From positions 25,762 through 89,761 of IMG/VR virus record IMGVR_UViG_3300032323_001868: DNA of 64,000 bases; one strand, written 5' to 3'. Source of the DNA: a virus. This document shows, piece after piece, positions 2,270-45,720 of this stretch (position 1 is the stretch's first letter; the number at the start of each line of letters is the position of its first letter). Under the pieces are notes generated by a model. That model saw only the letters and a program-made list of their open reading frames with translations, did not search any database and was not told where the DNA came from. Made by a program: the position numbers and the translations under genes.

Positions 2270-2722
2270 CTAAATATTATCCTCTGCCTGAATTGAGCGG
2301 GTATCAACATTGAAATCATCGATTGAATAATCAAATGAGTCAACACTGAATTCAAGTGTGTTGGCCACATCATCTGCGTCAACATCAAATGGTACTTCAA
2401 TCTCAATCTCAAACTCTACAACTGCATTAACAGTTACAGTCTTGGTTAGTTCAAAGTCACCAATCTGTGCAAACATCTCTGCAACCTCGTGAGTGAACTC
2501 ACGGTTACCAAGGCATTCAATAACATATTCTTTGATTGCATCCTTGGTTGCTTGGTGTGCTCGTTGTTCTGCATACAATGATTGTGAGTGTTCGGATGAA
2601 CGGTCCTGCAATGAGACAATCATCGCATCCTTCTTCTCAATTAATTCCTGCAGCGCTACAGCCTGATTCTGAAGAAATTCTCGTGTCATGTAGTATTCAT
2701 TGGTTAGTACTGGCTGGTCCAT
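2270..2722 (-). CDS. hypothetical protein, coiled-coil N-half and acidic C-half
   Basis: 150-aa ORF with its own promoter and AGAAAGAGG RBS. Confidence 0.8.
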   Translation of the reverse strand: MDQPVLTNEYYMTREFLQNQAVALQELIEKKDAMIVSLQDRSSEHSQSLYAEQRAHQATKDAIKEYVIECLGNREFTHEVAEMFAQIGDFELTKTVTVNAVVEFEIEIEVPFDVDADDVANTLEFSVDSFDYSIDDFNVDTRSIQAEDNI

Positions 2723-3228: not shown

Positions 3229-3651
3229 CTAGAGGTAGCGAGCCACCGCATTGTATGTTGAAGTATTAACTACTTCTTCATCTGTCATCTTGAGGATACG
3301 AATTGCGTTTGTGATTTCTTCCTTCTGCTCACGATATGTGTGCTGATGGATAACCTCGAAATCCTTAGTTGGCTCTGTTGGCATATCCTTTTCGGATACT
3401 GTCAAATCGAAGTCAATGTTAAGGCAGTTATTCCATGAACGATATGAAGTGCGGAAGTTTTCTGCCTTCTTGATGTTTGCTACTGCATAGTCAATAAGTT
3501 CCTTCTTATACTTCTCATACTGCTTTTGATACTTTGCTTCGTTGGCTTCTTGTGATGTGTAGTCTGCTTCTAGTTTAGCAAGTGCGCCTTCTAGTGCCTT
3601 GATTACCTTTGGTGTTGCGATTTTAACTGAGATTGCTTTTGCTCTTGACAT
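3229..3651 (-). CDS. hypothetical helical protein
   Basis: 140-aa ORF with AAAGGA RBS. Confidence 0.8.
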   Translation of the reverse strand: MSRAKAISVKIATPKVIKALEGALAKLEADYTSQEANEAKYQKQYEKYKKELIDYAVANIKKAENFRTSYRSWNNCLNIDFDLTVSEKDMPTEPTKDFEVIHQHTYREQKEEITNAIRILKMTDEEVVNTSTYNAVARYL

Positions 3652-3698
3652 GGTGTTCCTTTTCTTTGGTGGTTGATATTTCTATTATAGGGGGTGGA

Positions 3699-3726
3699 TA
3701 AGCCTTTTTGCAACTTGCTTAGGTTG
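3699..3726 (-). ncRNA. H-type pseudoknot element, copy 5
   Basis: CAAC-CTAAGCAA-GTTG-CAAAAAG-GCTTA; compensatory changes in both stems. Confidence 0.65.
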
Positions 3727-3775
3727 GTTCACGCCTCTTGTTTATAGTGGCTGTACGCTAACCACTATGAAAGGC

Positions 3776-3937
3776 TTACGCCTTCCAAGTTGTCCAGCGT
3801 GTTGAGCCATTTACATCTAACTTAACACGAACTGTGTCCTTTGATGTTGGTACGATTTCAACGATTGTGCCTGTGACCTTTGACTTCTGTGAAGTGTAAG
3901 TGTCGCCGACCTTGTATGTTGCTACTGCTACTGTCAT
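3776..3937 (-). CDS. 53-aa small beta-barrel (SH3/KOW-like) protein
   Basis: Start moved to MTVAVATYKVGD after an AAAGGA RBS; YKVGD...VTGTIVEI...VRVKLD pattern. Confidence 0.75.
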   Translation of the reverse strand: MTVAVATYKVGDTYTSQKSKVTGTIVEIVPTSKDTVRVKLDVNGSTRWTTWKA

Positions 3938-4043
3938 GTTTTTTCCTTTTCTGTGTTGGTTTGTTATATTTCTAGTATATCCGAGAAATCTCAGAAATAC
4001 AATTCCTAGCCTAGAGAATCTCATATTTTGAGACCCTTTCCCC

Positions 4044-4059
4044 TGTGATATAGGTCACA
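4044..4059. promoter_or_regulatory. CRP/GlxR-like box
   Basis: TGTGA-TATAGG-TCACA. Confidence 0.7.
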
Positions 4060-4126
4060 AGTTGCCTGTGATAAATAGGATAAGGAAACATATCCCTAGC
4101 CATAGTATGAATTTGTCCATAGTTCC

Positions 4127-4849
4127 CTACTTTTTGGTTGCACTAAATACTATATCAGATTTCTCATAAATACACAACTTGCAACTAGCGCATGCAGACC
4201 CTTTCTGTGAGATAAGTGGAATAGCCTTTTTATTCTCAGGGCACTTAGCCCCAGGCTTGCCTGTTAACTCCTTCATGTCTTCTTGTCCTATTAAGAAATT
4301 TTTGGCAAGGTATGCAAGGGAGATATTATGATCTGCTTTAAGTCCTATACCTATAGCCTTATTATCGCTATCTGTGGAATAGTATAGTGAAAGATTAGGA
4401 ATGTCTTTTAGAATAAGCGCTGCAGACTTAACTCTGGTATATACCCAGAATTGAATGTCTGGATACTTATCAACAACTACCTTCCATGCATATGCATAAG
4501 TATCATTAAAGAAATCTCCGTCCCAGTGGATACGGAATTGCTTAGGTGCATTGCGCTTATCGCACTCTGCATTAAAATCATTAATCATTTCATTAAGTAG
4601 ACGGACCATAGTTTCTCCGTCTGCATTGCGTAGTAGTTCCCAGTTATGCAATAGGTTTTTCTTTACTGTTGGGAATATCTTTTCTAACTTGCCTGCATAG
4701 CAAACACTTTCGCAGACACTAGTAGCGCCAGGACATGAATAGTTTTTACCTGCAGGTAATCCGAATGTGTTAGCGATACTTGCTTGTTTTCCATTAGGGG
4801 TGACGGCATTAGCAACTTTTCTATCTTTAGAGCGTAGTAGTTTAGTCAT
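4127..4849 (-). CDS. Gp88-like protein (Cys-rich, probable metal or Fe-S binding)
   Basis: FGLPAG..SCPGAT..C...CYA, FRIHWDGDFF, FWVYTR and C-terminal CPE...CxxCxxC motifs typical of actinophage gene product 88. Confidence 0.8.
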   Translation of the reverse strand: MTKLLRSKDRKVANAVTPNGKQASIANTFGLPAGKNYSCPGATSVCESVCYAGKLEKIFPTVKKNLLHNWELLRNADGETMVRLLNEMINDFNAECDKRNAPKQFRIHWDGDFFNDTYAYAWKVVVDKYPDIQFWVYTRVKSAALILKDIPNLSLYYSTDSDNKAIGIGLKADHNISLAYLAKNFLIGQEDMKELTGKPGAKCPENKKAIPLISQKGSACASCKLCIYEKSDIVFSATKK

Positions 4850-5084
4850 GGTGGGACCCTCTTTCTTTTTTTAATTTTAGCATTAGCGACTGACATTTCT
4901 TTCTGTCATATTTCTTTTTATTAGGTACCGCAGAGGCCGCATTGCTACGGCGTAATTCCATAAGCCTGCGTAATTCCTCGGGTGTTTTTTTCATATAATA
5001 ATTTTAGCAAAAATCAGGGAAAAATACAAGTTGGTCTTAATTAGGGTAAATCGGACATTTGTGGTGCGGGACGTCCCGCCTTTG

Positions 5085-5327
5085 CTACTCGTCTTTTTCT
5101 ATATAAACATAGAGGTCAACATATGTGTCGTGTGCAATTGTTATTGTATCTGGTTCACCATACACATCAACACAATCGATAAAGTAATTGTCTCCAGTTG
5201 AATCAGAATTGATATCAATTACTTCGATGAGTTCATCATCAATCTTGATTAGATCATCAGGCATCAGAGAACCTGGTGTTAATTTATCTGCCCATACTAG
5301 ATCCATGTTGTTTATTGTATCAGCCAT
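5085..5327 (-). CDS. small acidic beta-rich hypothetical protein
   Basis: 80-aa ORF in co-oriented early cluster. Confidence 0.7.
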   Translation of the reverse strand: MADTINNMDLVWADKLTPGSLMPDDLIKIDDELIEVIDINSDSTGDNYFIDCVDVYGEPDTITIAHDTYVDLYVYIEKDE

Positions 5328-5403
5328 TTATTCGTCCTCTTCGCTAGAAATACATTCATAACAATCACAATATTTTGAGTGGGGAATAAAAAAATCTTCC
5401 ATA

Positions 5404-5739
5404 TTACCCCTCATCATATTCTAGTGAGAGTGGGAAGTCATCAGACCCATCTTGCCAGTCATCGGCTGGCTCAATAAATACATCAAGGTGATGCTGGTCT
5501 ACGATAGCGTGTGCAGGTGCTTGAGTTTCTCCACGATAAAGAATCTGAAAGTCACCAACCTTCGGCATGTCAATCATGCGGTCATAGTCCTCATCATAGA
5601 AGGCGTCAATGGCTTCAATGCAAGGTTGCACCATTTCTGCGGGGACTGGAGGATAGTGATTAGCCTTAAGGTGATAGAGAATCTGAGTCTCCAAGTCAAG
5701 GACTTCTTCTTTAATTCCTAGTGCTGTAACTGAACCCAT
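5404..5739 (-). CDS. conserved phage hypothetical protein
   Basis: HLKANHYPPVP...IVDQHHLD His motifs; coupled to the upstream gene. Confidence 0.75.
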   Translation of the reverse strand: MGSVTALGIKEEVLDLETQILYHLKANHYPPVPAEMVQPCIEAIDAFYDEDYDRMIDMPKVGDFQILYRGETQAPAHAIVDQHHLDVFIEPADDWQDGSDDFPLSLEYDEG

Positions 5740-5740
5740 A

Positions 5741-5956
5741 TTACTTACCCCCTACATTTCCATTACGATAAAAGATTTTGGTGTGCATTTTGCCATTAGG
5801 CTCTGACAAGTTAATTGTGCGATATTCTTTTGCATCTCCATAGTCGTTGCATGCCATGAACGCACCAACGGCAGAAAGAGCATCACTATAGCGACCAACC
5901 CATTCAGGGCTAGTGCTATTGTCATTAGTTGAAGTAACTGAGTATAAGTATTCCAT
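5741..5956 (-). CDS. hypothetical protein
   Basis: 71-aa ORF with AAGGAG RBS. Confidence 0.7.
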   Translation of the reverse strand: MEYLYSVTSTNDNSTSPEWVGRYSDALSAVGAFMACNDYGDAKEYRTINLSEPNGKMHTKIFYRNGNVGGK

Positions 5957-6308
5957 TAGTTGTAACTCCTTTTACATTCTGAGCATAGATAGTTTAATTT
6001 GCAATAGCAACCTACTGCGTTTGGGCGGAGCATATCCGTTTCATAGTATTCGTCATAGAAATCCATACTAGTTAGCCTCTTTTGTTAGGAATAGTTGGTC
6101 AATGTAGTCATAGCCTATCATGGCTTCTACCTCTCGGTCAAGGTAGCAACGGAAGCAATAGAGTTCGGTTACATCTACTGCATTTTCATTACACTGCATG
6201 CATACATGTGCGGTCATGGGAGCCTTCTTTCTTAAGTTGATATAAATATCCTATCATATGGGGGTGACAAAGTGAAGTTCATAAGCCAAGTTCTGCGAAA
6301 ATTAATGG

Positions 6309-35089: not shown

Positions 35090-37123
35090 ATGTCAGAAAC
35101 CGTATTCTCTTTTCGTCTTTCAGATGAATTTGTAAATAAATATAATAATACTCCAGCCCCATTTGGATTCTCAGATGCGGGGTCTAACTCATTAGGAGAG
35201 ATTACATTTATTCGTACATATTCTCGTGTTAAAGAAGACGGAACTAAGGAACGCTGGCATGAGGTTTGCCGTCGTGTAATCGAGGGTATGTATTCAGTGC
35301 AGAAGAATCATGCTAAGGATAACCGACTACCATGGAATGATAATAAGGCACAGAAATCTGCTCAAGAAGCCTTCCAAAGAATGTTTGAATTAAAGTGGAC
35401 CCCACCAGGTCGTGGTCTCTGGGCATTTGGTACTCCTATGACTATGGAGAAGCGTAACTCTGCTTCCCTTCAAAACTGTGCAATGGTCTCTACTCGTGAC
35501 ATTGATCGTAATGATCCAGGAGCCCTATTTGCATGGGTTATGGATGCTCTTATGCTGGGTATCGGAGTAGGGTTTGACACCCTTGGACAAGACAAGCAGA
35601 TGTCTATTTATGCTCCTACAGAACCAGCCTCAATTTATGAAATCCCAGACACCCGTGAAGGCTGGGTAGAATCTGTTCGTATTTTGATTAACTCATTTTT
35701 ACGTCAGAATCAGCCAATTCAAGAGTTTAACTATGACCTTATCCGTCCTCTAGGAGCCCCTATTAAGGGCTTTGGAGGCGTTGCAAGCGGTCCACAGCCA
35801 CTTATTGATCTCCATACACGCATTCGTAATGTAATCGGTTCTAGAGCAGGAGAAGCCTTAGACAGTCGTGCTATTGTAGATATTGTTAATCTTATTGGTA
35901 CCTGTGTTGTTTCTGGAAATGTTCGTCGTTCTGCTACTCTTGCTTTGGGTACACCAGAAGATGAGGGTTTTATTAATCTTAAGAATCCAGAAGTATTCCC
36001 AGAAAGAAATTCATACGATCCAGAAAAGCCAGGTTGGGCATGGATGAGTAATAACTCAATTGCTGCCGAAGTTGGAACTAAGTATGAAGATTATGTAGAT
36101 TTAATTGCAGACAACGGAGAACCAGGATTTATCTGGCTTGATGTTGCTCGTAATTATGGCCGTCTTGCGGATGCTCCTGATTATAAGGACACTCGAATTA
36201 TGGGCTTCAATCCTTGTGCGGAGCAGCCATTGGAAAGTTACGAATTGTGTACACTTGTAGAAGTGCATCTTAATCGTCATGAATCCAAGGAGGATTTCCT
36301 CAAGACATTGAAGTTTGCTTATCTTTATGGAAAGACTGTAACACTTATGCCAACACATTGGCAGCAGACAAACGGTATTATGCAACGTAATCGTCGTATT
36401 GGTACATCACTTACAGGTATTGCTGCATTTGCTGATGAGCATGGACTTCCAGTTATTCGTGAATGGATGGACGAAGGATATAATACAATTCGTAAATATG
36501 ATCATTCATATTCTGAGTGGCTGTGTGTTCGTGAATCAGTTCGTGTAACAACAGTTAAGCCATCAGGATCTGTGTCACTTCTTTCTGGCGCTACTCCTGG
36601 AGTTCACTGGGGACCTGGCGGAGAGTTTTATCTTCGTGCTATTCGTTTTGGTGACCAAGATCCAATGCTTCATTTGTTTAAAGCAGCAGGGTATAAGATT
36701 GAAGCAGACTTGGTATCAGCCAACACATCTGTAGTATATTTTCCAGTGGCATCAGGACATAAGCGTTCTGAAAAACAAGTTAGCCTATTTGAAAAAATTG
36801 GTTTGGCAGCAACCGCTCAAAAGTACTGGTCAGACAATGGTGTTTCTGTAACACTTTCATTTGACAAGGAAGAAGAAAAGAAGTTTGTTGCTCCAGCACT
36901 GAATATGTACGAGGGACAACTAAAGGCAGTTTCATTCCTTCCAATGGGTAATAAAACATATCCTCAACAGCCATATACAGAAATCACACGAGAAGAATAT
37001 AACTCATATGTAGGAACTATCGGTAAAATTGACTGGTCTGCTATCTATGATGGCAGGGATAACCTTGATGCAGAATCTGAGAAATATTGCTCTACAGATG
37101 CCTGCGAAATCAAGTTATACTAG
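35090..37123 (+). CDS. nrdJ: class II (adenosylcobalamin-dependent, monomeric RTPR-type) ribonucleotide reductase
   Basis: RTYSR, PPGRGLW, NCA, VVSGNVRRSA, NPCAEQ.L..ELC.L, TTVKPSGS, C-terminal CSTDAC; no beta subunit nearby. Confidence 0.93.
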   Translation: MSETVFSFRLSDEFVNKYNNTPAPFGFSDAGSNSLGEITFIRTYSRVKEDGTKERWHEVCRRVIEGMYSVQKNHAKDNRLPWNDNKAQKSAQEAFQRMFELKWTPPGRGLWAFGTPMTMEKRNSASLQNCAMVSTRDIDRNDPGALFAWVMDALMLGIGVGFDTLGQDKQMSIYAPTEPASIYEIPDTREGWVESVRILINSFLRQNQPIQEFNYDLIRPLGAPIKGFGGVASGPQPLIDLHTRIRNVIGSRAGEALDSRAIVDIVNLIGTCVVSGNVRRSATLALGTPEDEGFINLKNPEVFPERNSYDPEKPGWAWMSNNSIAAEVGTKYEDYVDLIADNGEPGFIWLDVARNYGRLADAPDYKDTRIMGFNPCAEQPLESYELCTLVEVHLNRHESKEDFLKTLKFAYLYGKTVTLMPTHWQQTNGIMQRNRRIGTSLTGIAAFADEHGLPVIREWMDEGYNTIRKYDHSYSEWLCVRESVRVTTVKPSGSVSLLSGATPGVHWGPGGEFYLRAIRFGDQDPMLHLFKAAGYKIEADLVSANTSVVYFPVASGHKRSEKQVSLFEKIGLAATAQKYWSDNGVSVTLSFDKEEEKKFVAPALNMYEGQLKAVSFLPMGNKTYPQQPYTEITREEYNSYVGTIGKIDWSAIYDGRDNLDAESEKYCSTDACEIKLY

Positions 37124-37144: not shown

Positions 37145-37531
37145 ATGGATGCTTTAATTAACCCAAAAACTGGTAAACCCCTTGTACAAAATGTGCGTCG
37201 TCAGGTTATTGAAAAGAAATACAACTGGGGTCTATATGTGTACAAGAAATCAAATGGTAAGTGGTTTACCGATGGCGAAGGAAATGTTTTAAATATTGAA
37301 TCCATGAGAGGTGATATTTCAAAAATATCACAACTAAAAGACGCTGCAAAGTATTACGGAGATGCTGGTGACGGTGAGGCTGTATTTGTTCCTGGGCTTA
37401 CAAGAGTTTCAGATGAAGAATATTCTGAGCAGTTAGACAGAATGAATCAAGGACTTATTCCATCTATGAATGACTTAGGCGCATGGCATGCAGCACAACA
37501 AACTCATGATAGGTATGGTAGTGATGAGTAA
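37145..37531 (+). CDS. conserved hypothetical protein upstream of portal
   Basis: Leaderless TGGTATACT promoter; overlaps the portal start. Confidence 0.75.
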   Translation: MDALINPKTGKPLVQNVRRQVIEKKYNWGLYVYKKSNGKWFTDGEGNVLNIESMRGDISKISQLKDAAKYYGDAGDGEAVFVPGLTRVSDEEYSEQLDRMNQGLIPSMNDLGAWHAAQQTHDRYGSDE

Positions 37532-39116
37532 CGAATATCCAATTTTTGCAAAATTAAACACACAGGAAAAAGATCCAAATCCTTTTGCTGCTCAAGACCC
37601 ATTTAATAAAAATTGGGAAGATTTAAAAGATCTTGGAGGTATTAATCAAAACTTTAAACGCAGAACAAGTCGTGTTGTTAACAAGGCTGTTGGTGATCCA
37701 GCATACCTAGATGCAGCAAACGCCATGCCATCAGGAGAAGATTCTGCATCAAAGCAGATTAATCCTGGAACCGTATATCGTAATGGATATGGACTGTTTG
37801 ATGTAATTACACCACCATACAATATGTATGAGTTGGCTAACTTTTATGATACATCATTTGCAAACCATGCTGCTATTGATGCCAAGGTAGAAAATATTGT
37901 TGGCCTTGGATATAGATTTGATCTAACAGATACCACTGCTCTTCGTTTTGAAAGTAGTGACGATCAAGAAAAGGTTGCTCGTGCTCGCAAGCGTGTAGAG
38001 CGTATGAAGATTGAACTTCGTGATTGGCTAGAAAGTCTTAACGATGATGATTCTTTTACAAAGATTATGGAAAAAGTTTTTACAGATCTCCAAGCAACAG
38101 GTAATGGATTTATTGAAGTAGGTCGTAATGTTGAGGGGCAGATTGGCTATATTGGACACATTCCAGCAACAACAATTCGTGTTCGTAGACTTCATGATGG
38201 TTTCTTACAGATTATTGGAAACAAGATTGTATACTTTAGAAACTTTGGGGCAACAAATCAAAACCCAGTTACTTCAGATCCAAGACCAAATGAAATTATT
38301 CATATTAAGGAATATTCTCCACTAAACACATTCTATGGAGTTCCAGATATTGTTTCTGCGCTTCCTTCATTAGTCGGAGACCATTTGGCTTCTCAATATA
38401 ATATTGACTACTTTGAAAATAAAGCAGTTCCAAGATACATCATTACTCTTAAGGGTGCACAGTTAAGTGCAGACTCAGAAGATAAGATGTTTAGATTTTT
38501 GCAAACAGGACTAAAGTCTCAGTCACATAGAACACTCTATATCCCACTTCCTGGTGATACAGATCAAAATAAAGTTGAGTTCAAAATGGAGCCAATTGAA
38601 AACGGAATTCAGGATGGTTCTTTTAAAGAGTATCGTAAGCAAAATCGTGATGATATTCTGATTGCACACCAAGTACCTATTTCTAAAATTGGTGGATCTG
38701 AATCTGGTTTGGCTGCTGCTTTATCGCAAGATAGAACATTTAAAGAGCAGGTGGCTCGACCAGCACAGCATCACCTAGAGAAAATTATCAACAAGATTAT
38801 TAAAGAACAGACTGATATTCTTGAGTTGAAGTTTAATGAACTTACACTTACAGATGAAATTGCTCAGGCACAGATTCTTGAGAAGTATGTCAAGACTCAA
38901 ATTATGCTTCCAAACGAGGCTCGTGAGATTCTTGATTTGCCTCAGATAGAGGGTGGGGACAAACCTCTTGAGTTGACGGCAAGAGCAGCAGCAGATGCTA
39001 GAGCAAATACTGCCAATCGCCGTACAAGAGATACAGAAAGAACAAACAATCAATCTGATAGCCCGTCAACCATATCTGGTCGTAATCCCCAGGGTGAGGG
39101 TAGAGCATCTCAATAA
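37524..39116 (+). CDS. portal protein
   Basis: D..ATGNGFIEV.R, EIIH, YGVP, YFEN.AVP, I..AHQVP, PNEAR; precedes protease and capsid. Confidence 0.92.
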   Translation: MSNEYPIFAKLNTQEKDPNPFAAQDPFNKNWEDLKDLGGINQNFKRRTSRVVNKAVGDPAYLDAANAMPSGEDSASKQINPGTVYRNGYGLFDVITPPYNMYELANFYDTSFANHAAIDAKVENIVGLGYRFDLTDTTALRFESSDDQEKVARARKRVERMKIELRDWLESLNDDDSFTKIMEKVFTDLQATGNGFIEVGRNVEGQIGYIGHIPATTIRVRRLHDGFLQIIGNKIVYFRNFGATNQNPVTSDPRPNEIIHIKEYSPLNTFYGVPDIVSALPSLVGDHLASQYNIDYFENKAVPRYIITLKGAQLSADSEDKMFRFLQTGLKSQSHRTLYIPLPGDTDQNKVEFKMEPIENGIQDGSFKEYRKQNRDDILIAHQVPISKIGGSESGLAAALSQDRTFKEQVARPAQHHLEKIINKIIKEQTDILELKFNELTLTDEIAQAQILEKYVKTQIMLPNEAREILDLPQIEGGDKPLELTARAAADARANTANRRTRDTERTNNQSDSPSTISGRNPQGEGRASQ

Positions 39117-39156: not shown

Positions 39157-40467
39157 ATGAAAATAAATAAGGCTTCCTGGGTTACGGAAGGCGACAATGT
39201 TCGTCTTTCAATGCCCTTTGGAAAAGTAGATACAGAGAAGAGAATTGTCTCTGGTTTTGCTTCACTTGACAATCTAGACAAGCAATATGACATTGTAACA
39301 ACTGAAGCATCTATGTCTGCTTTTGCAAAGTTCCGTGGTAATATTCGTGAAATGCATCAGCCATCAGCAGTAGGCAAGATGATTTCATTTAAAGAAGAAA
39401 AGTATTTTGATCCAGAATCAAAGAAGTTTTACAAGGGTGTTTATGTTTCTACATACATTTCTAAGGGTGCACAAGATGCGTGGGAAAAGGTTCTAGACGG
39501 AACATATACTGGTTTTTCAATCGGGGGTAGAATGAATAAGTGGGATGATGCTTATGATGAAAAGATGGATAAGCAGATTAGAATTATTAAGGATTACGAC
39601 CTAATTGAACTTTCACTAGTTGACAGCCCAGCAAATCAGTTTGCAAGCATTATGTCAGTAGAAAAGGTAGATGGTGTTGACATTATTAAGGTTGATGATA
39701 CTGTGCTTGAAAATGTTTTTTATGATAAGAGTTCTGGACTTGTTATTACATCGGAAGAAGAAACACATGTAAGCCCAGTCACTGGCGAAGAGATGACAAA
39801 CATTGGTTTTGTAGAAAAAGATGATTCAGAAAAAGCAAACATGATAAAGTTCTTAGTTGATAGTGCTAAAGGCATTAGTACAATTAAGATTACAAAGGAG
39901 GTAAATCCTATGACAGAAACAACAGAAGCAGCAGTTGATGCTGTAGTTGAAAGTGCAGAGGTTGCTCCAGAGGCACAGCCAGCAGAAGTTGAAAAGACTG
40001 ATGCAGTCGCTGAAGAAGCAGCAGTTGTTGAAGAGACAGAAGTTGCAAAGTCAGTTGATGGTGGTGCAGATTCCGCTGTAGCAGAAGCAGCAGTGGAAGA
40101 AGAGACTGTAAAGGAAGCATCAGACGTTGTTAACGAAGTTGCATCAGCAGTTAATGAGGAAGTTGCAAAGGCAGTTTCTGAAATTAAAGAGTCTCTTACT
40201 AATGCCTTTGGCGATCTTGCTGCAACAATTAAGTCTCTTAATGAGCAAGTAGCAGCAGTAACAAAGTCCGTTGATAGCGTAACAGGTGAGGTTAACAATA
40301 TCAAGGGTAACTTTAATGAGTTTGGCAAGCGAGTAGATGCCGTAGTTGCAGACACCGCTTTCCGCAAGTCTGGCGATCTAGGCGAGATCGTGCAGTTTGA
40401 GCCTGTAAAGGTTCAGAAATCCCTATGGGGCGGACGTTTCCTCACAAATTCCGACCTATTAAGTTAA
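39157..40467 (+). CDS. HK97-type prohead protease fused to scaffold
   Basis: VSGFAS...D.Q.D, EMHQ, TGFSIGG, ELSLVDSPAN; acidic Ala/Glu-rich coiled-coil C-half. Confidence 0.9.
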   Translation: MKINKASWVTEGDNVRLSMPFGKVDTEKRIVSGFASLDNLDKQYDIVTTEASMSAFAKFRGNIREMHQPSAVGKMISFKEEKYFDPESKKFYKGVYVSTYISKGAQDAWEKVLDGTYTGFSIGGRMNKWDDAYDEKMDKQIRIIKDYDLIELSLVDSPANQFASIMSVEKVDGVDIIKVDDTVLENVFYDKSSGLVITSEEETHVSPVTGEEMTNIGFVEKDDSEKANMIKFLVDSAKGISTIKITKEVNPMTETTEAAVDAVVESAEVAPEAQPAEVEKTDAVAEEAAVVEETEVAKSVDGGADSAVAEAAVEEETVKEASDVVNEVASAVNEEVAKAVSEIKESLTNAFGDLAATIKSLNEQVAAVTKSVDSVTGEVNNIKGNFNEFGKRVDAVVADTAFRKSGDLGEIVQFEPVKVQKSLWGGRFLTNSDLLS

Positions 40468-40495
40468 GATATAAAATCACTAGGAGGTGAACAAT

Positions 40496-41638
40496 ATGTC
40501 AGAACAAAATACAGATATCGTAAAGAACTATCCAGGTTCTCCAACTGAAAATCACGCTCACAATGGCGATGGTGCATTTGCATCAGGTGCTATTGGAGGT
40601 GCAACAGTTACAGGTCCAGATGGCAACCTTACACCCGCTGCTTCTCTCGGTAACATTGCTACAGCAGCATTTGGTACCTACGGAGCAAATTCTGTAAACC
40701 CAACTGGTACACCAGGTGGTATTTTAGCACCAGAGCAGGCTCGTCGCTTCATCGACTATGTGTGGGATGCAACAGTTCTCGCCAAGGATGGCCGTAGAGT
40801 TACTATGCGAGCAAACACAATGGAACTTGAGAAAGTTAACGTTGGTGAGCGTGTAATCCGTGCTGCTGCACAAGCACAGCCAGATTTCACAAACGCAGGT
40901 GCTACATTTACTAAGGTTGAACTTACTACAAAGAAGATTCGTCTTGATTGGGAAGTATCAACTGAAGCGCTTGAAGACAATATTGAAGGTGGAGCACTTG
41001 AAGATCATCTAGTTCGCTTGATGACCAATGCTTTTGCTAACGATATCGAAGATCTTGCAATCAATGGTGATGGTTCAACAGGACCATTCCTTTCGATCAT
41101 GGAAGGTTTCGTAAACAAGGTTACAGACGGTTCAGATGCTCACGAAGCAGCAGTAACTGTTTCTAACAACGAATGGACTCCAAACGTTATGCAGGACATC
41201 ATCTTGGCAATGCCACGTAAGTACCGTGCACTTAAGTCAAACCTTAAGTTCTACGCAGGTACAGACGCATTCCAGGGTATTGTTAAGAATAACGGTACAC
41301 TTGCTGATGCAATTGCAGAAGCAGTTCAGGGTCAGATTCCAGGAAGCACACAGGCTAACCGCCAGGCTTACCTCGATGGCGCAGGACAGACATTCGGCGA
41401 TGCTCGCACAACTCGTGTACTCGGCATCACAGTCCAGGAAGTTCCTTACTACCCAGCAGGTTATGTCGACTTGACATTCCCAGCAAACCGTGTATGGGGA
41501 TTCCAGCGTGATATCACAGTAAATCGTGAATATATCAACAAGAAGGACACCATTGAATACACCGTATTCGTTCGCTTTGGTCTTCAGTGGGAAGAGTTGG
41601 ATGCAGTTGCTTACGCAGATGCAGCCTCAGATTCCTAA
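40496..41638 (+). CDS. major capsid protein (HK97 fold)
   Basis: GGAGG RBS, GGIL.PEQ..RF, E.LEDNIEG, EDLAINGD; position after the protease. Confidence 0.92.
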   Translation: MSEQNTDIVKNYPGSPTENHAHNGDGAFASGAIGGATVTGPDGNLTPAASLGNIATAAFGTYGANSVNPTGTPGGILAPEQARRFIDYVWDATVLAKDGRRVTMRANTMELEKVNVGERVIRAAAQAQPDFTNAGATFTKVELTTKKIRLDWEVSTEALEDNIEGGALEDHLVRLMTNAFANDIEDLAINGDGSTGPFLSIMEGFVNKVTDGSDAHEAAVTVSNNEWTPNVMQDIILAMPRKYRALKSNLKFYAGTDAFQGIVKNNGTLADAIAEAVQGQIPGSTQANRQAYLDGAGQTFGDARTTRVLGITVQEVPYYPAGYVDLTFPANRVWGFQRDITVNREYINKKDTIEYTVFVRFGLQWEELDAVAYADAASDS

Positions 41639-41658: not shown

Positions 41659-41688
41659 AGGGGGGCAGCGTAAAAACTGCCCCTCTTA
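41659..41688 (+). terminator. hairpin or terminator after the capsid gene
   Basis: AGGGGGGCAG/CTGCCCCTCT stem, weak T tail. Confidence 0.65.
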
Positions 41689-41706
41689 GTCATATAAGGA
41701 GAAAAT

Positions 41707-41922
41707 ATGTCTTATCCAGGAAGTACACCAGAAGAACATAACCACCGCAGCAGTGGATGCATTGTTGCAGGTGGAGTAACTGGAACAGTTATATCTGGAC
41801 CTAACGGAATCATATCTGAAAAAAATGCTTTAGGGTGTATACCTACAGCAAACTTTGGTGAGAACATAATTATGTCTGGAACACCTTCAGGCATTAGAAG
41901 ACCTCAGACCTTAAGAAGATAA
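41707..41922 (+). CDS. 71-aa stand-alone paralogue of the major capsid N-terminal arm
   Basis: AAGGAG RBS; colinear with MCP N-terminal residues from YPGS to RR. Confidence 0.75.
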   Translation: MSYPGSTPEEHNHRSSGCIVAGGVTGTVISGPNGIISEKNALGCIPTANFGENIIMSGTPSGIRRPQTLRR

Positions 41923-41958
41923 CTCTGGTATAATTACAGTTAGGCATAGGGAGATCAA

Positions 41959-42303
41959 ATGACAATAATGGAAGATTTAGCAACAAAGACTGTTATGGAA
42001 TTAAAGTCATACGCTAAAAAGAATAACATTGATCTATTTGGGGTAAAAACAAAGTTAGAAATACTAGAAGTAATTGCTAGTTTTCATCCAAATGACAAAG
42101 CACCGTCAGATTTAAAAGAAGAAGTTAAGCAGCCAGAAGAAAAGGTTGCTCTTTACTCTACTAGAAATATCCACTGGAATGGTTTGGGGTCTCTTGCAGT
42201 AGGATACAACATCGTCTCAAAGGAGGCATCGGAAAAGATGGTTACTCATAAGGCAGTACGCATAGCGTCTCCAGAAGAGGTAGCATCATACTACGGTAAA
42301 TAA
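41959..42303 (+). CDS. Rho-N/HeH-like domain head-associated protein
   Basis: L..KTV.ELK.YAK..NI.L....K.EIL..I. Confidence 0.7.
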   Translation: MTIMEDLATKTVMELKSYAKKNNIDLFGVKTKLEILEVIASFHPNDKAPSDLKEEVKQPEEKVALYSTRNIHWNGLGSLAVGYNIVSKEASEKMVTHKAVRIASPEEVASYYGK

Positions 42304-45081: not shown

Positions 45082-45720
45082 ATGGCTAACTATAGCCGTG
45101 GTACATCAACCAACATCATCGTTGGTGCAGCAGCACTTTTTGTTGCAGATACAACTCTTGATGCAGCAAGCCTTACAGCGTTTGAAACAACTAAGTCTTT
45201 TAAGGATACCCTTACAAACGATGCAGATTACACAAACGTAGGCTACACAATGAACGGCCTTGAATTGCAGTTCCAACCAGATTTCGGTGAAGTCCAGGTA
45301 GACCAAATTCTTGACGTTGCAAAACTTTACAAGCAGGGTATGCAGGTTAATCTTGCAACTGCTTTCGCCGAGGCAACACTAGAAAACCTTCTTCTTGCAC
45401 TTGCATACAGCGATTCAAAACTTACAGGCAACAAGGCTACTTCAGGTGGTCGTGTACTTGATCTCTCAGCAGGAGACATCGGAGAATGTCCAGTTGAAAG
45501 AGGAATCGTTGCAATTGGTCCAGGAACAGGTGACTGCGTTGATTCAGCAACAGTAGAGCGTGTATACACAGCATACCGTGCACTTTCAATTGAAAATGTT
45601 ACAGTATCTGCAAAGCGTGATGAGGCTTCAATGTTTGAAGTTTCATTCCGTCTTCTTCCAGAGGACGTTTCAGGTTCATACGGTAAGATCGTAGATCGTA
45701 CCTTCACACCTGCTTCATAA
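45082..45720 (+). CDS. major tail tube protein
   Basis: NII.GA..LF, VGYT..G, V.VDQ, .AEATLENL; strong RBS and downstream terminator. Confidence 0.88.
   Translation: MANYSRGTSTNIIVGAAALFVADTTLDAASLTAFETTKSFKDTLTNDADYTNVGYTMNGLELQFQPDFGEVQVDQILDVAKLYKQGMQVNLATAFAEATLENLLLALAYSDSKLTGNKATSGGRVLDLSAGDIGECPVERGIVAIGPGTGDCVDSATVERVYTAYRALSIENVTVSAKRDEASMFEVSFRLLPEDVSGSYGKIVDRTFTPAS

Follow-up and report, generated by a model that had tools for sequence, protein, structure and literature searches.

The DNA analysed here comes from the IMG/VR record IMGVR_UViG_3300032323_001868 (89.7 kb), and the window, i.e., the whole stretch under study, spans 64,000 nt and corresponds to record positions 25,762-89,761. 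It contains a late head operon composed of the genes for the portal (37488-39116), a prohead protease (39157-40467), and the major capsid protein (MCP, 40496-41638, plus strand), followed by a small ORF, a gene encoding a 114-aa protein, and connector-like genes. The S78 motifs of the protease fall within its first ~170 residues, and its C-terminal half is long, acidic, rich in Ala, Glu, and Val, and coiled-coil-like; it presumably is the scaffold. A gene for a separate scaffold is not present between the portal and the capsid genes. The MCP is of the HK97 type (Pfam PF05065, 2.6e-6; phrog_1623, 6.4e-74). The listed start of its gene, a GTG at 40487, falls within the AGGAGG ribosome binding site (RBS; window 40482-40498), and the ATG at 40496 (MSEQ...) is the likely start, in agreement with the MS(D/E)(E/Q) beginning of the MCPs of Streptomyces phages.

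The small ORF is located on the plus strand at positions 41707-41922 and, according to the ORF listing, runs from an ATG start to a TAA stop and encodes 71 aa. The AAGGAG RBS that an earlier note had assigned to it is indeed present at 41696-41701 (plus strand), 5 nt ahead of the ATG. A TAA codon in frame with the small ORF lies at 41695-41697, 9 nt ahead of its ATG, and the ORF and the MCP gene, which ends at 41638, are in different reading frames; thus, the small ORF is a separate cistron. A frameshift or read-through variant of the capsid protein, as in T7 10B, is ruled out by the frame, by the upstream TAA, and by the ORF having its own RBS.

Residues 2-71 of the small protein align to residues 14-87 of the MCP with 28/74 identical positions (38%; BLASTP, E 8e-16), and the profile of the small protein aligns to that of the MCP N-terminus over all 70 columns (hhalign, probability 99.6%, E 1.2e-23). 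The colinearity over the whole ORF, proposed in the earlier note, is therefore borne out by both methods. The homologous MCP segment, identified by BLASTP and hhalign, is encoded at 40526-40747 (plus strand) and comprises a Gly-rich insert (YPG...GTP) and the following GGILAPEQARR. No third copy of the module was found in the whole 89.7-kb record, which contains only those of the MCP and of the small ORF. On these alignments, the small ORF is a free-standing paralogue of the N-terminal insert of the MCP. We discarded a paralogue with a complete HK97 fold, like T4 gp24, as the small ORF lacks the core of P and A domains and has no capsid-family match.

The nature of the copied segment emerges from the comparison with the closest cultured relatives by MCP, the 130-kb Coruscant-type Streptomyces siphoviruses (42% identity over residues 77-369). 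The Coruscant MCP has a short leader and a Gly run, and then continues directly with PEQANRFIDY. The MCPs of the lake clade have a similar leader (MSEQ..IVKN), followed by ~58 extra residues (YPG ... GTP) and then by GGILAPEQARRFIDY. As the Coruscant protein goes straight from the leader to PEQA(R/N)RF, the lake-clade segment is a clade-specific insert in the N-arm. The small ORF corresponds to this ~58-aa insert plus the next ~10 residues. The claim that it copies the N-terminal arm thus holds for the insert and for about ten arm residues and not for the whole arm, because the leader MSEQ..IVKN was not copied. The match to the MCP begins at residue 79 for the Pfam Phage_capsid family and at residue 73 for phrog_1623, so the end of the copied part coincides with the start of the region of the MCP that is widely conserved, as the earlier note had placed it.

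The insert is variable and the MCP core is highly conserved: most invariant columns lie after residue 75, and dN is 0.25 in the insert vs 0.10 in the core. Among the window and its relatives, the insert (40526-40700 in the window; loci L001-L080) can be sorted into six or more sequence types, which differ in the presence of YPG, HxH, and GPxG and some of which are shortened, and the remainder of the MCP is nearly invariant across these types.

The small protein is rich in Gly (17%) and Pro (9%), and also in Ile, Thr, and Asn. Its invariant or near-invariant positions are M1, S2, Y3, P4, G5, G17, G23, P32, G34, G43, G51, G58, T59, P60, and G62, with P4, P32, and P60 each followed by G or xG. 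The MCP insert shares the conservation at most of these positions. The last 12 residues carry a net charge of +3 to +5 in 27/27 complete sequences (26 loci and the window). The mean pI of the small protein is 8.9 vs ~5.0 for the acidic N-terminal region of the MCP.

To assess the conservation of the small gene, we examined 80 viral contigs whose MCPs are 76-97% identical to that of the window. An orthologue was found in 27/80 contigs, 25 by tblastn and two, more divergent, by inspection. All 27 are intact and free of frame disruptions (one is cut by the contig end), with lengths of 70-85 aa and identities of 41-94% to the small protein of the window. They all start with MSYPG, except one with MSYSG, and all the orthologues inspected have an AGGAG-type RBS 4-7 nt ahead of the start codon, with a one-base variant in two of them (L055 and L057). 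For close pairs, dN/dS of the small gene ranges from 0.05 to 0.25 (Nei-Gojobori). Considering the pairs with core dS < 0.5, the small gene has a median dN/dS of 0.19, matching the 0.18 of the MCP insert, and the MCP core has a median of 0.09. The gene being intact wherever it occurs, with a conserved RBS and start and a dN/dS of ~0.1-0.2, decay is excluded, and these sequence patterns indicate that the small ORF is a real gene under purifying selection. This settles the question raised in the earlier note, which had taken the diverged yet intact state of the ORF as a sign of selection and had indicated a decaying partial duplication as the reading to be checked by conservation and dN/dS in relatives.

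In public metagenomes, the family includes 48 clusters (90% identity) of proteins of 69-89 aa, labelled as hypothetical or spuriously auto-named. A profile search against 1.8 billion representative proteins retrieved six clusters at 50% identity (73-89 aa) and no other convincing relatives.

The small gene is placed in the genome as a cassette with sharp borders. After the MCP stop, a GC-rich hairpin with a 10-bp stem and an 8-nt loop is present at 41659-41686 (plus strand). Eight of its ten pairs are kept through changes on both sides (RNAalifold, 23 loci), and it occurs in loci with and without the small ORF. The hairpin, which was not called by a simple terminator scan because of its weak T-run, is likely a terminator or a 3'-end stabiliser. 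At the downstream border, an extended -10-like box, TGGTATAAT (41926-41934, plus strand), precedes the next gene, as it does in nearly all the relatives. Together, the hairpin and the TGGTATAAT box look like a terminator or attenuator and an internal late promoter separating the head-shell genes from the connector genes. The next late gene (41959-42303, plus strand) is found throughout the 80 relatives, contig ends aside, and it was used as the anchor to score the presence or absence of the small gene. Residues 5-40 of its 114-aa product contain a Rho_N/SAP-like motif (PHROG profiles to E 1e-5; Pfam Rho_N below threshold).

In the non-carriers, the hairpin and ...TAGTCATAT run straight into TCTGGTATAAT and then into the RBS of the next gene, and in the carriers, the RBS, the ORF, and the TAA are placed exactly between ...TAGTCATAT and TCTGGTATAAT. 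Coherently, 80-96 nt separate the MCP gene from the next gene in most non-carriers, vs ~320-350 nt in carriers. The small gene begins 66-72 nt past the MCP stop in the window and in all carriers except one (L072), in which a tandem duplication shifts it to 1,150 nt downstream of the MCP. Neither a promoter-like site between the hairpin and the small ORF nor a second hairpin after it was found. Having no promoter and terminator flanks of its own, the small gene does not qualify as a moron. Since it also lacks a promoter-like site, its mRNA would most likely derive from read-through of the hairpin.

The small gene is missing in 53/80 loci, some of which have a near-identical MCP N-region, as in the carrier/non-carrier pair L002 and L003. 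Whole-record searches in five long non-carrier contigs found no relocated copy, only the insert of the MCP itself, and one of the five is a 100%-complete genome of 114 kb. The absence from two thirds of the relatives and from a complete genome implies that the gene is dispensable. Mapped on the MCP-core tree, its distribution requires from 4 changes, when only well-supported branches are considered, to 12.

Then, we compared the phylogeny of the small protein with that of the MCP N-region. When both were placed in one tree, the sequences split into two clades (SH-aLRT 97), one with the 26 distinct small proteins and one with the 63 distinct MCP N-regions, and the order of branching among the small proteins follows that among the MCP N-regions; the alignment has 75 columns only, and the deeper nodes are weak. 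A single clade with mirrored branching indicates one old partial duplication, followed by vertical descent together with the capsid gene.

The N-terminal motif varies between clades and is similar in the two paralogues of one clade: both copies have PTVxHQHxGDG, or HTH, or P-x-LNGEG-like motifs in place of HxH. Of all 720 clade permutations, none matches better in the first 22 aligned columns than the own-clade pairing, although the number of independent clades is small; over the remaining columns, this pairing ranks 76 of 720. Recent gene conversion does not account for the shared motifs, because the synonymous sites have diverged: about half of the residues that are identical in the two copies are encoded by different codons. 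From the sequences, the co-variation could reflect old partial conversions or a shared clade-specific constraint, e.g., a common partner. An association between the presence of the small gene and the loss of GPxG in the MCP insert (raw counts 25:3 vs 30:22) is not significant, because only four supported independent pairs are available.

We also evaluated the expected abundance of the small protein on the basis of codon usage. In the window, ATA and AGA codons are nearly absent from the MCP gene (40496-41638), from the putative major tail gene (45082-45720), from the gene at 35090-37123, and from the early genes at 1011-2027 and 2270-2722 (minus strand). In most other genes of the window, they represent 25-80% of the Ile and Arg codons. 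This split is a usable proxy of expression class in this phage. Pooling all carriers, ATA represents 45% of the Ile codons in the small gene vs 0% in the MCP gene, AGA represents 78% vs 8% of the Arg codons, and GC3 is 0.16 vs 0.33. Within the window, the codon use of the small gene resembles that of the connector, tape-measure, tail-assembly, and other low-copy genes, and is unlike that of the MCP gene or of the putative major tail gene. The low-expression codons, together with the position behind the hairpin, point indirectly to a low-copy product. In the contigs of four freshwater/river metatranscriptome runs, the MCP gene was covered and the small ORF was not; the strains present there may lack the gene, and these contigs therefore do not bear on its expression. 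A low predicted copy number argues against a decorator that matches the capsid subunits one to one, as well as against an abundant decoy.

This bears on the function suggested in the earlier note, a minor capsid protein. The word "minor" fits the low-expression codons and the position behind the hairpin; an obligatory structural part does not fit a gene absent from two thirds of the relatives. None of the specific roles named there, extra N-arms at the portal or vertices, a size modulator, or a decoy, finds support in the present data. A role at the portal or vertex, which was also put forward there, would be compatible with a low copy number and is weakened by the dispensability of the gene.

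Comparisons with known families and structures gave few indications. No family of Pfam or PHROGs matches the small protein of the window, and a Pfam scan of 19 members of the family gave no meaningful match. The best match of a PDB profile search with the small protein has E 0.6, with matches at chance level such as the T4 gp5 beta-helix (E 2), and a PDB sequence search with the MCP profile gave no match. INPHARED contains no close relative: tblastn with the small protein finds nothing there, and the MCP N-region matches only along the conserved PEQARRF stretch. No usable look-alike of the small protein was found in the ESM Atlas. AlphaFold2 gave pLDDT values of 34 for the MCP (46-row alignment) and 47 for the small protein (19 rows), too low for a fold search, and the prediction of a complex between the two scored 0.00 (81-row alignment, including Coruscant-type relatives), which gives no verdict.

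A narrow direct search of the literature did not retrieve any free-standing, selected paralogue of only a capsid N-arm insert. The closest known kinds appear to be the capsid paralogues, as T4 gp24, and the small optional head proteins. T4 gp24 is a few-copy vertex protein paralogous to the major capsid protein gp23, and, like the small ORF, it is a capsid-gene paralogue located just downstream of the major capsid gene and derived by duplication. Unlike the small ORF, which covers only a 70-aa N-terminal segment and is dispensable in nature, gp24 has the full HK97 fold and forms pentons.

Among the small head proteins, lambda gpD, T4 Soc and Hoc, and SPP1 gp12 are accessory proteins whose genes often lie near the capsid gene and are frequently optional, and SPP1 gp12 is Gly-rich and of ~64 aa, like the product of the small ORF. 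The decoration proteins described are not known to be paralogues of a capsid segment, and most are made in capsid-like amounts. Decorators that bind only to pentons need few copies. The decoration protein gp7 of mycobacteriophage Bridgette is bound around pentons only (10.1101/2022.09.09.507160). The small protein, a putative capsid binder, differs from decoration and cement proteins in having no sequence relation to them and in its low-expression codons.

Two other groups of systems share some traits with the small ORF. In the T4 capsid-targeting sequence of internal proteins and in the similar N-termini of 80alpha scaffold and capsid, a head protein shares its N-terminal region with the capsid protein, and the small ORF resembles the capsid-targeting systems for the shared capsid N-region and for the prohead protease gene nearby. 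However, the T4 and 80alpha signals span 10-20 aa at the very beginning of the protein, precede a cargo, and are cleaved off by a protease, whereas in the small ORF the leader is not copied and the shared part is the whole protein. The HK97 delta domain and the scaffolds illustrate that the N-terminal region of a capsid protein can exist as a separate polypeptide, as here. Scaffolds and delta domains are helical, essential, abundant, and encoded upstream, whereas the small module is rich in Gly, Pro, and Thr, has short strands in a low-confidence model, is optional, and is predicted to be low-copy. Furthermore, the phage of the window has a scaffold-like domain already fused to the protease. 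We rejected a scaffold or delta domain for the small protein, with its 17% Gly, 9% Pro, and only short predicted strands, and with its absence from a complete relative.

Our best explanation, which we hold tentatively and at somewhat less than an even chance, is that the small ORF encodes a low-copy accessory protein of the head or of its assembly, using the same contacts as the MCP insert. The 5' end of the capsid gene was partially duplicated once, giving a stand-alone Gly-rich module of ~58 aa. The resulting promoter-less cassette behind the hairpin would depend on late transcripts that read through it, and its product would reach a minor fraction of the amount of the MCP. The positions shared with the MCP insert (YPG, usually HxH, GxG, GPxG, FG, and GTPxGI..P.Q) most likely reflect a common binding partner, which would be either the lattice of the capsid or a protein of head assembly. 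With a few copies per head, the protein would serve as a non-essential helper or stabilising factor, and its Arg-rich tail might touch DNA or an acidic surface. Since the MCP leader is absent, the small protein may not be targeted like the MCP. If the S78-type protease removes the MCP insert, the idea that the same contacts are used in the mature shell fails. In addition, low-expression codons would equally fit a non-structural regulator.

An unlikely alternative is that the free module is a decoy, as already envisaged in the earlier note for capsid-sensing defence, or a competitor. As a decoy, it would titrate a host factor that binds to the variable insert of the capsid, such as a protease, a chaperone, or a defence protein that senses capsids; as a competitor, it would vie with the MCP for a phage partner and so time the assembly. 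The insert is the hypervariable part of an otherwise highly conserved protein, the N-terminal motif of the small protein follows that of the MCP of its own clade, and the gene is accessory and often gained or lost, as anti-defence genes are. Against this, a loosely constrained Gly-rich segment is expected to be variable, and the dN/dS of 0.18 of the insert is still purifying; defence-related families give no match; and the small protein would be made late, together with an MCP that, given the hairpin and the low-expression codons, should be far more abundant and which it would have to out-compete. We consider slightly less probable a packaged internal peptide, in which the module enters the procapsid, may be trimmed by the protease, and binds DNA through its Arg-rich tail, perhaps being ejected. 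Precedents for packaged DNA-binding peptides are the internal peptides of T4 and adenovirus mu and VII. Moreover, the basic C-terminal tail is invariant, the prohead protease with its fused scaffold-like domain is encoded directly upstream, and the N-arms of HK97-type proteins face inward in procapsids. However, the small protein has neither the MCP leader nor a cargo domain, and at a low copy number it would neutralise little charge.

The conserved prolines could be read in another way, as Pro-Gly and Pro-x-Gly sites (YPG, GPxG, and TPxG) that in both copies are hydroxylated or glycosylated by phage enzymes, the free copy being a regulator, i.e., a second substrate or a primer of prolyl-hydroxylase-like or glycosylation enzymes. 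P4, P32, and P60, with G or xG next, are nearly invariant, but the argument is purely circumstantial and we regard this reading as very improbable. The same low probability is assigned to a spare-part function, which stems from a structural resemblance. Residues 13-36 of the small protein (window 41743-41814) are predicted as strand-turn-strand, are more hydrophobic than in the MCP, and weakly resemble blades of Asp-box-type beta-propellers, i.e., the YGNGTFVAVGDxGTILTSPDG repeats of DUF6242/PSII_BNR-like proteins. The multi-repeat matches have E values from 1e-8 to 1e-3, with a repeat set picked with the same profile, and are thus circular. With the same circular set, hhalign gives a probability of 92% over 24 columns, and of 3% for the MCP insert; no BNR family of Pfam matches the small protein. 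In such a scheme, the insert would be a self-associating strand-turn-strand unit, like a single propeller blade, and the free copy would complement it in trans. The capsid subunits would pool their units around symmetry axes, and the free, co-varying copy, anchored by its Arg tail, would fill in for the unit lacking at breaks of symmetry, at the five-fold vertices or at the 12-fold portal set in a ring of capsid subunits. Finally, the repeated loss of the small gene and one contig with recombination between the copies could suggest a non-functional remnant of a partial duplication, an idea that we find barely credible for a gene that is intact in 27/27 carriers at up to 59% protein divergence, with a conserved RBS and start, a dN/dS of ~0.1-0.2, and no frame disruptions.

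The known routes to accessory proteins of phage heads are the recruitment of unrelated decorators and the duplication of the whole capsid gene. Here, a copy of the N-arm insert alone has been maintained by selection as a small, probably low-copy gene and has been lost several times, a course of events for which a narrow search of the literature gave no precedent. If the small protein sits in heads, as in the accessory-protein explanation that we favour, this would be a new route to capsid accessory proteins, and also a handle on what the embellishments of the N-arm do. If it acts outside the head, the phage would be mimicking a segment of its own capsid. The family is abundant in lake viromes.

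As to the tandem duplication mentioned above for one carrier locus (L072, positions 3497-6010), either the paralogues recombined recently or the assembly is chimeric. The duplication is 1,150 bp long, with copies 100% identical, and extends over the larger part of the MCP gene and the hairpin into the beginning of the small ORF. At its junction, the 5' part of the small ORF and the MCP insert share a 7-nt microhomology (GGTGCAA), and the result is a frame-broken hybrid.
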